From Nannocystales bacterium (GTDB taxonomy: Bacteria; Myxococcota_A; Polyangia; Nannocystales; Nannocystaceae): a stretch of DNA of 64,000 nt. The notes beneath the pieces are model-generated. The model saw only the letters and a list, made by a program, of their open reading frames with translations, did not search any database and had not been told where the DNA came from. The stretch covers positions 96,001 through 160,000 of the forward strand of contig JBOEGF010000018.1 in NCBI GenBank assembly GCA_050633305.1, read 5' to 3'. The translations under genes and the position numbers were made by a program. Below, in pieces: positions 31,701 to 32,770 of this stretch (positions are counted from its first letter, which is position 1; each line of letters starts with the position of its first letter).

Positions 31701-31804
31701 GGCGCTCCCCATCGCACGGGCCGCACACGCCCGGCCTACAGCCAACTGCCTGTCACGCAGTCGTCCTGAAAAGACGATCAAACGGCCCGTGCACTCGGGA
31801 GCCC
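31701..31804 (+). ncRNA. Array unit 0: scaffold RNA carrying tandem anticodon stem-loops Asp(GUC) and Phe(GAA)
   Basis: GCTCCC/GGGAGC, CATC/ACTC loop, GCACGGGCCG/CGGCCCGTGC; ACTGC-CTGTCAC-GCAGT and TCGTC-CTGAAAA-GACGA. Confidence 0.75.
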
Positions 31805-31849
31805 ACCTTTCCCCTCGGCCGAGACTCCGTATGGAGTGGCCAAGTTCTC

Positions 31850-31990
31850 TTCGCGTCCAACGAGGAAGCCCAACACGCAACTACGCGGGTTCGATCCCCG
31901 CACTCAAACCAAAAAAGCAGAGGTCATGCCCGGTGGACGGGCGTCCGGCAGGAAGCCGGATCGACAATGGCTTCATCACTCGGACGCGAA
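31850..31990 (+). ncRNA. Array unit 1: scaffold RNA with degenerate permuted tRNA (T arm, D-like arm, GGA loop)
   Basis: TTCGCGTCC/GGACGCGAA; CAACACGCAAC; GCGGG-TTCGATC-CCCGC; GCCC-GGTGGAC-GGGC; TCCGG-CAGGAAG-CCGGA. Confidence 0.75.
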
Positions 31991-31999
31991 ACCAACTTC

Positions 32000-32152
32000 T
32001 CACACGCCCAATCGCCAGAGCCTTACACGCAACTCAAACTGTTGGTTCGAATCCAGCCGGGGCCACTTCGGGCCCTGTAGCCAAATGGTAAAGGCACCGC
32101 CCTCTTAAGGCGGCGATACAATCGCCCACGGCTCCGCCACTCGGGCGTGTGA
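32000..32152 (+). ncRNA. Array unit 2: scaffold RNA with circularly permuted tRNA, anticodon CUU (Lys)
   Basis: T arm GTTGG-TTCGAAT-CCAGC; acceptor CGGGGCC/GGCCCTG closed by ACTTCG; D arm GCC-AAATGGTAAA-GGC; CCGCC-CTCTTAA-GGCGG. Confidence 0.85.
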
Positions 32153-32168
32153 ACCCTCTTCGCTGTGT

Positions 32169-32241
32169 GGAACAGCTGCGGGTTGTAGAGCGACCTCGCC
32201 TTCGCTCCAGCCCGCGGCTGGGCCAGCTTTCGTTGGCCCCC
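32169..32241 (+). repeat. 73-nt double-hairpin spacer, copy 1
   Basis: 5 differences from copy at 32559-32631. Confidence 0.9.
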
Positions 32242-32257
32242 GCAGCACCGACTTTGA

Positions 32258-32388
32258 CCACCCAACCGCACGAGCCCTACACGCAACTTTCCAGGTGTCG
32301 CCGGTTCGAATCCGGCCCTCCGCTTCGGCGGACGTAGCTCAGCTGGCAGAGCATTGGACTGAACCTTGCGGCTCGTTCACTCGGGTGG
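32258..32388 (+). ncRNA. Array unit 3: YrlA-like topology, tRNA-Phe-like module opened at the anticodon loop
   Basis: TCCAG-GTGTC-GCCGG-TTCGAAT-CCGGC-CCTCCGC-TTCG-GCGGACG-TA-GCTC-AGCTGGCA-GAGC-A-TTGGA-CTGAA inside scaffold CCACCC/GGGTGG. Confidence 0.85.
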
Positions 32389-32401
32389 ACTCAACCTTTT
32401 C

Positions 32402-32544
32402 TCCGTGCCCAATCACCGAAGCCCTACACGCAACGTTTCGCGGGTTCGAATCCCGCCGATCCCTCACGGGGGTTGTAGCCAAGTGGATAAGGCATCAGTT
32501 TTGGGAACTGACTCACTCTCGAGGCTTCGGGCCTCGGGCACGGG
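32402..32544 (+). ncRNA. Array unit 4: scaffold RNA with circularly permuted tRNA, anticodon UGG (Pro-type loop)
   Basis: GCGGG-TTCGAAT-CCCGC; CGATCCC/GGGGTTG; GCC-AAGTGGATAA-GGC; TCAGT-TTTGGGA-ACTGA; scaffold CCGTGCCC/GGGCACGG. Confidence 0.85.
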
Positions 32545-32558
32545 AAACACTCTCCATC

Positions 32559-32631
32559 GGAACAGCCGCGGGCTGTGGAGCGACCTCGCCTTCGCTCCAG
32601 CCCGCGGCTGGGCCACCTCTCGTTGGCCCCC
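32559..32631 (+). repeat. 73-nt double-hairpin spacer, copy 2
   Basis: CAGCCGCGGGCTG/CAGCCCGCGGCTG stem then GGCCA/TGGCC stem. Confidence 0.9.
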
Positions 32632-32642
32632 TCCAGATTCTC

Positions 32643-32770
32643 GTCATCCATCCGCACGAGCCCTACACGCAAGCCATCCAAAGGACGCCGGTTCGAATCC
32701 GGCCGACGTTGTCGTAGCTCAGCTGGATAGAGCATTGGACTCCATCTTGTGGCTTGCACACTCGGGTGAC
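32643..32770 (+). ncRNA. Array unit 5: YrlA-like topology, opened at anticodon loop, CU-CCA (Trp-like) remnant, 4-bp acceptor
   Basis: TCCAA-AGGAC-GCCGG-TTCGAAT-CCGGC-CGAC-GTT-GTCG-TA-GCTC-AGCTGGATA-GAGC-A-TTGGA-CTCCA inside GTCATCC/GGGTGAC. Confidence 0.85.

Follow-up and report, generated by a model that had tools for sequence, protein, structure and literature searches.

Canonical bacterial Ro60 proteins have RtcB/RtcA or PNPase as partners. The closest described relatives of the locus studied here are the systems of YrlA with Rsr/Ro60, e.g., Salmonella rsr-yrlBA-rtcBA and that of M. smegmatis, where the RNA gene adjoins the Ro60-type gene on the same strand, and the RNA termini are paired into a long stem bearing a permuted tRNA-mimic head. 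The Y RNAs of metazoans and Deinococcus, whose Ro60 partners are represented by the structures 1yvp and 2nvo, follow a common logic, combining a terminal protein-binding stem with a variable internal module. According to Chen et al. (2014, PMC4201824), the order of T arm, closed acceptor stem and D arm is the defining layout of YrlA, and the sequence GNCGAAN0-1G near its 5' end is the proposed Rsr contact. YrlA genes lie no more than 4 kb from a TROVE-annotated Ro60 ortholog, on its strand, and in cells Rsr binds the RNA, which has modifications of the tRNA type. By this account, bacterial Y RNAs have been sought only beside TROVE-annotated proteins.

We analyzed a 64-kb window, that is, the whole stretch of DNA examined, from a Nannocystales bacterium (contig JBOEGF010000018.1 of assembly GCA_050633305.1, positions 96,001–160,000 of the forward strand). 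With a probability of about 0.75, it carries a set of six small non-coding RNAs of the Y type, all encoded on one strand, that partner a divergent Ro60-like protein encoded immediately downstream.

Array of RNA units

The array occupies window positions 31702–32772 on the plus strand and consists of six tandem structured RNA units of approximately 104–153 nt each. It starts about 27 nt past a terminator-like hairpin with a T5 tract (31647..31675, plus strand), read from the sequence, which ends the upstream OmpA-family gene (OmpA domain in the ORF 30343–31326); this hairpin is missing from the consensus terminator scan because its loop is 12 nt long. A covariance model built from the six units, R1, matches only these units within the window.

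All six units share one scaffold and differ in the head that it carries. In U0 (31702..31805, plus strand, as are all units; 62.5 bits with R1) the scaffold is accompanied by three small hairpins and neither a T nor a D arm, CACACGC and ACTCGG both being present. U1 (31851..31990; 89.7 bits; 22 of 26 modeled pairs form) has a T arm followed by non-tRNA hairpins. U2 (32000..32152; 107.7 bits) carries a T arm, a closed acceptor stem, a D arm and a full anticodon-like arm with the loop CUCUUAA, and U4 (32403..32544; 126.3 bits) also has T, acceptor, D and anticodon-like arms, the loop being UUUGGGA and the 3' strand of the internal loop CCUC. The heads of U3 (32256..32391; 104.6 bits) and U5 (32642..32772; 102.3 bits) are of the classical YrlA type (T arm, acceptor hairpin, D arm).

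The gaps after U2 and U4 contain a long GC-rich hairpin of 73 nt, absent from the list of the sequence-only reading: X1 (32169..32241, plus strand, fold z-score –6.5) in the U2/U3 gap and X2 (32559..32631, plus strand, –5.4) in the U4/U5 gap, with 93% identity between them. U2-X1-U3 and U4-X2-U5 constitute a segmental duplication of approximately 390 nt. The X hairpin, confined to the five closest loci (L001–L005), was rejected as a member of the RNA family. The array was also considered as a repeat or mobile element, and this was rejected: the genome holds just these six copies, and their stems covary rather than match letter for letter.

The common handle

The scaffold forms a handle that comprises an outer stem, a 4 × 4 internal loop (5' RRYC, 3' ACUC), an inner stem of 9 bp with GCC:GGC at its end, and a single-stranded YUACACGC(AA) at the junction. 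The outer helix is 6–10 bp long in the window units (8 bp are modeled) and closes with CC:GG. These elements had been described in the sequence-only reading, and its description agrees with our data in detail. All six outer-stem pairs quoted there are in place, GTCATCC/GGGTGAC including one G-U pair. The internal loop, given as AAYC-like/ACTC, has ACTC on its 3' side in five of the six units and CCTC in U4, while its 5' side reads CATC, AAC, AATC, AACC, AATC and ATCC in U0 to U5, respectively. The inner stem ends in GCC/GGC, and the ACACGC strand is present, in 6/6 units (CACACGC in U0). The pyrimidine-rich linkers are likewise confirmed, and they are conserved: among 99 units, 47–64 have T at the positions +4 to +9 past their end and no more than 20 have A or G, at a background T fraction of 0.16. 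Finally, the GGUCCGA/UUGACC bulged helix, by which metazoan-type Y RNAs differ from the array, is indeed absent, as GGTCCGA does not occur in 31701–32772 and TTGACC occurs there once, in the linker at 32254.

Minimum free energy folds close the outer stem in all six units and the inner stem in all except U5. Compared with 200 dinucleotide shuffles, the fold z-scores of U0 to U5 are –4.5, –3.9, –2.7, –1.4, –3.2 and –2.8, and 17–24 of the 26 modeled pairs are formed per unit.

Covariation and the wider RNA family

The search set was comprised of the window and 49 related Myxococcota loci encoding relatives of the downstream 581-aa protein, found from this single protein as a query. In this set R1 identified 100 units at E ≤ 0.1, of which 99 are on the strand of the gene. 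In the alignment of these units, itself fitted to R1, standard pairs occupy 92.2% of 2381 pair cells, compared to 28–44% if partners are slid by 1–3 columns. Double changes are observed at 24 of 26 pairs and at 5 of 5 pairs of the T stem; the number of compensated cells is 506 vs. 135 in shuffles, and none of 500 shuffles reaches that value. RNAalifold, applied to the same R1-fitted alignment, likewise gives 24 pairs, which make up the outer, inner and T stems; compensatory changes are seen at 22 of them.

The single-stranded blocks are conserved to the letter. In the junction block A-C-A is found in all 98 units having a letter there, the next position is C (79/98) or A (18/98), followed by G (98/98) and C (99/99), and the ACUC letters are present in 98–100 of 100 units. 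The scaffold, initially read as constant and covarying from six units, is therefore conserved well outside the window.

The adjacent protein and its predicted Ro60-like architecture

The gene that starts 53 nt downstream of the U5 end (32826..34571, plus strand) encodes a protein of 581 aa with a helical N-terminal domain and a C-terminal VWA domain with DxSxS, as seen from Pfam and AlphaFold2. Pfam identifies VWA_2 at residues 386–483 and nothing else, and D391, S393 and S395 are invariant in the protein family.

The likeness to Ro60 comes from the predicted structure (AlphaFold2, pLDDT 90.3). The top 11 Foldseek matches are all Ro60/TROVE, with E from 4.8e-08 to 1.3e-06 over 526–611 alignment columns. 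When 48,161 chains were searched independently of Foldseek, more than 180 residues were aligned, among the top 50 matches, solely with 1yvp_A (Z 13.7, 432 aligned residues), 2nvo_A (Z 13.3, 429) and 9l5y_B (Z 12.6, 422). Full-length structural alignments (419–433 residues, Z 12.6–14.3) were obtained with Ro60/TROVE chains alone, the identity to the metazoan and Deinococcus proteins being 12–14%; these Z values do not exceed those of VWA-only matches (about 14), and hence the helical domain contributes little to the score.

Pfam TROVE (PF05731) matches neither the protein, with the threshold relaxed to E ≤ 10, nor any of 45 family members, and it matches nothing across the genome, while control genomes do match, so that no canonical TROVE gene is seen. 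Profile–profile alignment by hhalign relates it weakly to six canonical TROVE proteins of myxobacteria (probability 31%, E 5e-04, 259 columns); restricted to the helical N-terminal domain, the similarity does not rise above that of a cross-domain control (E 0.033 vs. 0.059). A profile search of PDB retrieves RO60 at E 0.0049 by the VWA part alone, phmmer against PDB gives nothing relevant, and NCBIfam and PADLOC have no match for the protein. From the model we predict that the protein has the two-domain architecture of Ro60, a helical ring followed by VWA/MIDAS in one chain of approximately 500–600 aa.

Linkage of the units to the protein gene

The units are located near-exclusively upstream of, and co-oriented with, genes of this one protein family. 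At least one unit is present in 40 of 49 loci, and in 38 of these 40 the last unit ends 24–357 nt before the gene. The 11-Mb genome contains six R1 matches and one copy of the Ro60-like gene. Among genomes that encode a relative of the protein, 3 of 7 were matched by R1, compared to none of 15 genomes that do not, 10 of the latter having canonical TROVE; beside six canonical TROVE genes R1 found nothing full-length. Nine loci lack a unit, and two of them (L029 and L030) hold little or no upstream DNA; of the other seven, five were represented by genomes searched whole, and units were found in all five. Even among relatives at 37–39% identity, permuted tRNA-like modules or a unit are retained nearby, in four of six jumbo-virus loci, in L032 (a weak match) and in L033.

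The close upstream position also suits another explanation, that the array is a cis-acting 5' leader, kept in the mRNA and controlling its stability or translation, e.g., through autoregulation by the encoded protein. Besides the co-orientation and the short distances, it agrees with a consensus scan of 31300–36900, which gave no promoter-like site and a single terminator-like one, on the minus strand inside the Ro60-like gene, fewer than shuffles give, and is uninformative by itself; neither type of site is seen between the units or before the gene, and the last unit is just 53 nt from the ATG. Against a leader speak the units situated elsewhere: megabases from the gene in G302, where the 1.5 kb to either side of them contain neither the operon nor a TROVE protein, downstream of the operon in L033, and 3.3 kb upstream in L046. 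The number of units, varying from one to six among relatives, is also odd for a leader, and for known Y RNAs co-transcription with rsr ends in their release as free molecules (PMC7790460; PMC4201824). We consider a leader unlikely.

As to the cutting from one precursor proposed in the sequence-only reading, the scan shows no such sites between the units, and published RNA-seq of Myxococcus xanthus, which has units at L011:2823–2951 and 3693–3833, was considered as well. The locus is covered by 20 of 24 runs listed, which come from 8 studies and include 19 RNA libraries; four runs were examined, two of which were contig runs unable to show transcription. In the two raw-read runs the depth is flat in either orientation (approximately 23–66 per bin); neither peaks nor ends of unit size appear over the two units, and these runs are uninformative either way.

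Downstream operon

The Ro60-like gene is followed by a gene of a conserved 303-aa protein of no known family (34577..35488, plus strand) with invariant Cys272. In 46 of 49 loci it lies downstream of the gene encoding the Ro60-like protein, and in L048 the match is approximately 3.5 kb off. Pfam, NCBIfam and PADLOC yield no match for this protein. Its structural model (pLDDT 84.9) has N-terminal beta-barrels and no Foldseek match at E ≤ 0.001. Matches of the S1/OB type, to exosome cap proteins (E 3.8e-03), RNase II and the Mpa OB domain (Z 5.4, the best Z in a wide VIA search), are weak, and the C-terminal domain resembles UBC/RWD folds at Z of about 4 only; all matches of this protein are below the reliability levels of the tool itself.

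Next come genes of a JAB-family peptidase (35507..35917, plus strand; Prok-JAB, 26.3 bits vs. the cut-off of 25, E 7.1e-06; 41/49 loci), an 80-aa protein (35932..36174, plus strand; 22/49 loci), which is a candidate ubiquitin-like modifier judging by its neighbors alone, and a 190-aa protein with an E1-like (ThiF) adenylation domain (36184..36756, plus strand; 21/49 loci), matching ThiF at E 2.8e-22 and the E1-E2 models of PADLOC down to E 1.4e-13. For the 80-aa protein, the C-terminus of which reads FGS, no family match was found, and ESM Atlas gave unnamed myxobacterial clusters only.

Iyer, Burroughs and Aravind reportedly surveyed bacterial ubiquitin-like conjugation operons, which are sets of E1, E2, JAB and Ubl genes (see also PMC7159879). 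Here, too, ThiF/E1-like, Prok-JAB and small 80-aa genes stand together; in contrast to those operons, both the Ubl (80 aa) and the E2 (303 aa) are candidates only. The locus differs from the YrlA systems in that the protein adjacent to the RNA genes has no Pfam TROVE match and the operon partners are JAB and E1-like rather than RtcB/RtcA. In the openly accessible literature searched, we found no description of the E1/JAB set coupled to a Ro60-like protein and Y-type RNAs, and no paper that treats Y RNA or Ro60 in Myxococcus, or JAB/E1 together with TROVE.

The regular presence of the 303-aa gene after the Ro60-like gene raises the question of whether the handle is bound by this protein, another operon product or a housekeeping factor, with the Ro60-like protein acting on other RNAs. 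The beta-barrels with their weak S1/OB-type likeness would fit an RNA binder, and two invariant RNA blocks could suit two different ones. On the other hand, the structural matches all stay below the reliability levels, tRNA-like modules or a unit are retained near relatives as distant as 37–39% identity, and wherever a Ro60 system has been studied, Ro60 is bound by its neighboring Y RNA (PMC4201824). This assignment of the binder seems improbable to us.

Heads, tRNA likeness and relation to YrlA

The heads of U2–U5 are circularly permuted tRNA mimics with the order of T arm, closed acceptor stem and D arm, and U0 and U1 do not have this order. The T-arm-like stem-loop, of the GGUUCGAAUCC type, is present in U1–U5. 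Throughout the family, the T arm is found in 89 of 100 units, the D arm in 77, and a full anticodon-like arm in 47, whereas 11 units without the T arm retain the handle. The observed types of heads are a permuted tRNA mimic with or without the anticodon arm, plain hairpins, and, in L007, a whole ordinary tRNA-Tyr. Several related loci lie within tRNA gene arrays. The sequence-only reading had treated the heads as variable tRNA-derived cargo, a swappable payload. They do differ, but less than "swappable payload" suggests, for the T arm comes close to the scaffold in constancy.

The comparison with Rfam proposed in the same reading left tRNA as the sole family at its gathering score, in the window as well as 15 related loci. 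The tRNA model reaches this score at 32071–32134 in U2 (33.3 bits) and across U3 and U4 (32.6 bits), and U4 itself scores 28.2 bits; the tRNA matches in the array either have no T arm or extend over two units, and ARAGORN finds no tRNA genes in the 64-kb window. A reading of the units as tRNA genes that have degenerated or been rearranged, or as precursors giving rise to tRNA-like pieces, functionally unlinked to the neighboring protein, is very improbable, since the two gathering-level scores, the L007 head and the location of some loci in tRNA gene arrays, which favor it, are outweighed by the null ARAGORN result, a T arm preceding the D arm, the closed acceptor end, the handle kept in units without the T arm, and the covariation of this handle and its specificity to loci and genomes with this protein.

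The relation to YrlA (RF02553) is much closer. The YrlA model aligns along its entire length (positions 1–114) with U5 (42.7 bits, E 1e-07) and U3 (39.3 bits, E 9.7e-07), and partially with U4 (23.6 bits); its gathering score of 69 bits is reached nowhere in the window or the 15 related loci. The array RNAs share with YrlA the paired termini, the T–acceptor–D order and the same-strand position next to a gene, here one whose product is predicted to be Ro60-like. They differ in the ACUC and YUACACGC blocks of the handle, which have no counterpart in the Rfam consensus, and in the additional anticodon-like arm of 47 of 100 family units. As to the proposed Rsr contact of YrlA, the pattern G.CGAA.?G does not occur in 31701–32772, so that GNCGAAN0-1G is present in 0/6 window units, and it matches 16 of 100 family units, at the junction of the internal loop and the inner stem. 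Hence, the claim of a new Y-RNA-like family apart from known Y RNAs does not stand, given the full-length alignments of U3 and U5 with YrlA, the common order of arms, and a neighboring protein that is predicted to be Ro60-like. With the shared handle, the tRNA-like heads and the predicted Ro60-like neighbor, the array probably adds a new variant to the Ro60/Y-RNA partnership already known from bacteria and does not represent an RNA of an entirely new kind.

Possible mechanism and implications

In a partnership of this kind, the RNAs, each with its own 5' and 3' ends paired into the handle and the variable head on top, would be transcribed with the operon or just ahead of it and trimmed at the U/C-rich linkers. 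By analogy with Y RNA stems on Ro60, the handle may dock on the Ro60-like protein, leaving the tRNA-like head to recruit, or act as a decoy for, a tRNA-recognizing factor. The resulting RNP might work with the JAB, 80-aa and E1-like module in place of RtcB/RtcA or PNPase.

If so, a widespread myxobacterial "VWA domain-containing" protein with a Ro60-like predicted shape has its own family of Y-type RNAs, and the known reach of the Ro60/Y-RNA partnership is widened. The link of the RNP to JAB and E1-type genes could reveal the role of bacterial Ro60 particles, and the family provides a natural experiment in co-evolution of an RNA handle and its protein. The handle, which encloses very different heads, may also serve as an RNA display scaffold. 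The locus is carried by the model organism Myxococcus xanthus and is therefore open to genetic tests.

A broader and more speculative possibility, which we put forward tentatively, is that these loci represent a second, hitherto unrecognized lineage of Ro60-type RNPs in Myxococcota and, through relatives, on jumbo viral contigs, having a ring protein that has diverged beyond the reach of the TROVE profile, a co-evolved docking code of its own (RRYC/ACUC and YUACACGC) and wiring to a Ubl conjugation and deconjugation module in place of RNA ligase or PNPase. The handle would then be a display platform for tRNA mimics that bait or divert nucleases attacking anticodons, within an island of tRNA-centered defense or stress response. 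In such a lineage, the anticodon triplets of the mimics might turn over quickly between close relatives.

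Array layout and unit structure

The array occupies window positions 31702–32772 on the plus strand, after a terminator-like hairpin closing an OmpA-family gene, and comprises six tandem units on this strand, U0 (31702–31805), U1 (31851–31990), U2 (32000–32152), U3 (32256–32391), U4 (32403–32544) and U5 (32642–32772). From 5' to 3', in a unit the outer stem leads into a loop strand of 4 nt, then 9 nt of inner strand closing with GCC, the YWACACGC(AA) block and the head, that is, the variable part carried by this handle, followed by GGC with the remaining inner strand, ACTC, and the 3' strand of the outer stem. 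The 5' loop strands are, in order from U0 to U5, CATC, AAC, AATC, AACC, AATC and ATCC, and the 3' loop strand is ACTC in all units except U4 (CCTC). All stem pairs quoted in the sequence-only reading are present in the sequence; in minimum-free-energy folds the outer stem closes all six units, and the inner stem, all but U5, with fold Z-scores of –1.4 to –4.5 relative to dinucleotide shuffles.

The linkers are 9–103 nt long, each starting with a U/C-rich tract. Moreover, a block of approximately 390 nt is duplicated (U2–X1–U3 and U4–X2–U5), where X1 (32169–32241) and X2 (32559–32631), missing from the earlier list of elements, are 73-nt GC-rich hairpins that may serve as processing or spacer elements. 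An X hairpin follows each window unit bearing an anticodon arm, and such hairpins are found only in the five closest relatives; the folding energies of the 91-nt stretches with X1 and X2 are –58 (z –6.5) and –50 kcal/mol (z –5.4).

Covariation and family consensus

The covariance model of the six units (R1), with 26 hand-set pairs (8 in the outer, 9 in the inner, 5 in the T and 4 in the D stem), was run against the window and 49 loci retrieved via the downstream protein. It yields 100 matches at E <= 0.1, each spanning the full model, of which 99 lie on the strand of the protein; the one exception, on the minus strand, overlaps a match on the plus strand. Within the 64 kb of the window, R1 matches nothing but the six units. 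Pairs are formed in 92.2% of 2381 cells, compared to 28–44% with 3' partners slid by 1–3 columns, both sides change in 24 of the 26 pairs, and 506 cells are compensated versus 135 +/- 11 in shuffles (0 of 500 as high), in an alignment that, being fitted to the model, favors the modeled structure. That the signal is real is supported by the slide control and by the variety of pair types, which reaches six per pair. The outer, inner and T stems also come out of RNAalifold, applied to the same model-fitted alignment, with compensatory changes in 22 of its 24 pairs.

The family consensus is ..GCGCCC / RRYC / G...RRGCC / YUACACGC(AA) ... GGCYU...C / ACUC / GGGCGC... Within the ACACGC block, A-C-A is invariant among the 98 units with a letter at these positions; it is followed by C in 79 of 98 and by A in 18, and the block ends in G (98/98) and C (99/99); ACUC is kept in 98–100 of 100 units. 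The two-helix handle is conserved and covarying, with two invariant sequence blocks.

tRNA mimicry in the heads

At the gathering score, Rfam matches in the window are limited to two tRNA matches, and ARAGORN calls zero tRNAs there. At a relaxed threshold (the gathering one being 69), U5 and U3 align with YrlA (RF02553) end to end, over model positions 1–114 (42.7 bits, E 1e-07, and 39.3 bits, E 9.7e-07, respectively), and U4 and U2, partially. In U2–U5 the head follows the succession T arm, closed acceptor-like hairpin, D arm, which is how Chen et al. lay out YrlA (PMC4201824). U0 has no tRNA feature in its head, U1 retains the T arm alone, and U2 and U4 add a full anticodon-like arm of 5 bp and 7 nt. 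Among the 100 family units, the T arm is present in 89, the D arm in 77 and the anticodon-like arm in 47, while 10 have none of these. In one locus (L007:3657–3789) the handle surrounds a complete, normally ordered tRNA-Tyr(GUA), called by ARAGORN at 3688–3762 and scoring 60.3 bits with Rfam tRNA. Thus the earlier idea of a constant handle with a variable head is borne out, yet YrlA-type tRNA mimics make up the majority of the heads.

In the anticodon-like loops of U2 (32097–32113), U4 (32495–32511) and their orthologues (L001–L005, L037, L038, L041), positions 32–33 and 37–38 and the stem are kept, and the middle triplet varies among close orthologues (CUU, CUU, GUU, AUA, UCU and UCU in the U2 group; UGG, UGA and CGG in the U4 group). 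Outside it, these units are mostly conserved.

The handle and known Ro60 contact sites

The array lacks the metazoan GGUCCGA/UUGACC helix, as previously stated, and the GNCGAAN0-1G motif of Chen et al. is found in none of the six window units. Sixteen of the 100 family units, mostly orthologous Myxococcus ones, contain it where the internal loop meets the inner stem, so the RRYCG(A) consensus at this junction may be a diverged form of this contact, which we consider a lead. The ACUC and YUACACGC blocks of the handle have no counterpart in the Rfam consensus of YrlA.

The Ro60-like protein

The gene directly downstream (32826–34571, plus strand) starts 53 nt past U5 and encodes a 581-aa protein, in which Pfam identifies only VWA_2 (residues 386–483). 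TROVE does not match it even at E <= 10, NCBIfam and PADLOC yield nothing for it, and no TROVE match is found in the 11-Mb genome (92% complete), whereas control genomes do match. Its relatives, common in Myxococcota and encountered, among others, in Myxococcus, Archangium, Cystobacter, Polyangiaceae, Nannocystaceae and Kofleriaceae, are called "VWA domain-containing protein" if named.

In a Foldseek search of PDB with the AlphaFold2 model (pLDDT 90.3, 45-sequence alignment), the top 11 matches are all Ro60/TROVE (9kop, 9nfa, 1yvp, 2i91, 9l5y, 9nf8, 1yvr, 9nep; E 4.8e-08 to 1.3e-06, 526–611 alignment columns, TM 0.34–0.54, identity 12–14%), with 2nvo ranking 16th. VIA-align to Ro60/TROVE chains gives Z of 12.7–14.3 over 419–433 residues. 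When 48,161 representative chains were searched independently of Foldseek, only 1yvp_A, 2nvo_A and 9l5y_B align over more than 180 residues among the top 50, and all other top-50 matches are to VWA domains; as VWA-only matches score equally high, the helical domain contributes little to Z. Profile comparisons are weak: hhalign with six canonical myxobacterial TROVE proteins yields probability 31% (E 5e-04), and the helical domain alone, E 0.033 versus 0.059 in a cross-domain control. Accordingly, we describe the protein as Ro60-like in its predicted architecture rather than as an established TROVE member.

Linkage of units to the protein

Units are present in 40 of the 49 loci, one to four in each, the six of the window being the most, and in 38 of these 40 the last unit ends 24–357 nt before the gene. 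One locus (L033, 39% protein identity) has a full unit downstream of the operon, and another (L032), a degenerate unit just upstream. Of the nine loci with no unit, two (L029, L030) have little or no upstream DNA; for the other seven, five genomes were searched in full and all five have units, in two of them on the same strand just past the 4-kb flank. In another of the five, G302, the units are megabases from the gene, and their 1.5-kb surroundings contain neither operon nor TROVE protein. The window's genome has only these six units and one gene copy, among 150 first-pass candidates scored.

In 22 chosen genomes R1 detects units in three of seven that encode a relative of the protein and in none of 15 that do not, ten of which have canonical TROVE; this comparison, using genomes related to each other and a capped number of scored candidates, is only descriptive. 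Beside six canonical TROVE genes from this phylum, R1 gives no full-length match. Among 301 sampled genomes of the phylum, the protein family is present in eight and TROVE in 25, and both, in one (G290), where the protein match is a fragment. Overall, the units are closely and strand-specifically linked to a protein of Ro60-like predicted shape.

Relatives of the protein with 37–39% identity also occur on large viral contigs (L073–L078, IMG/VR, 78–497 kb); in four of these six loci (L073–L076), permuted T arm/D arm modules upstream on the same strand have partial model matches (E 0.0013–0.048). In Myxococcus and kin (L010–L028), two units are approximately 740 nt apart (about 2950–3690), and high-GC ORFs overlap this stretch. 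Same-strand tRNA genes flank the operon in six loci from Polyangiaceae and Kofleriaceae (L033, L034, L037, L038, L041, L045), ARAGORN calling two in L045 and five to ten in each of the other five (8–10 kb each). Ro60 genes of the canonical TROVE loci of this phylum (L057–L062) also lie amid many tRNA matches, L059 having three 125-nt tRNA-like repeats spaced by approximately 256 nt; Rfam YrlA has no matches at E <= 0.01 in the 1.5-kb flanks of these genes.

Relation to known systems and proposed mechanism

As arrays of multiple distinct Y RNAs next to rsr have already been described (PMC4201824), a multi-unit array as such is ordinary. The new feature is that both partners are outside current family models: the RNA is sub-threshold in Rfam and has a different handle, and the protein is invisible to Pfam TROVE. 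The search of Chen et al. was restricted to genomes with an annotated TROVE protein (PMC4201824) and would have missed this lineage; of six myxobacterial names, their supplement, file 6 aside, contains only the TROVE-bearing Plesiocystis and Sorangium. We found no description of such an array, protein or operon in the literature within our scope, most subscription journals being outside it.

By analogy with the studied Ro60/Y RNA pairs, as far as described in PMC4201824 and PMC7790460, the RNAs would be released from a shared transcript or that of the operon, the handle would dock on the Ro60-like protein, and the head would engage tRNA-recognizing factors. In two raw-read RNA-seq runs of M. 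xanthus, depth is flat in both orientations. Hughes et al. suggested that YrlA, through its tRNA-like domain, might competitively inhibit an anticodon nuclease; speculatively, this idea would fit the anticodon-like arms with a varying middle triplet.

The downstream operon

Four plus-strand genes follow, encoding a 303-aa protein (34577–35488; 47 of 49 loci, directly downstream in 46) and an 80-aa protein (35932–36174; 22 loci), both without family matches, a Prok-JAB peptidase (35507–35917; 41 loci; 26.3 bits at a cut-off of 25) and a 190-aa ThiF/E1-like protein (36184–36756; 21 loci; E 2.8e-22). In its model (pLDDT 84.9), the 303-aa protein shows OB-like barrels and a C-terminal domain that weakly matches UBC/RWD-like folds, no Z exceeding 5.4, and Cys272 is invariant. 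From the JAB and E1 genes, it is reasonable to infer a set for ubiquitin-like conjugation, of which the Ubl and E2 parts are putative. The 80-aa protein ends in ...VPFGS, which would fit a modifier with glycine exposed by the JAB peptidase. This coupling of an RNA and a Ro60-like protein to JAB and E1-type genes is also new. Unlike the Salmonella rsr-yrlBA-rtcBA operon (PMC7790460), this one has no gene for RtcB or RtcA. Nearby genes (36497–38251 and 26078–27301) code for a leishmanolysin-like (M8) peptidase that has a Big_1 domain and for a metzincin-like one, and are conserved with the operon only in the closest relatives.
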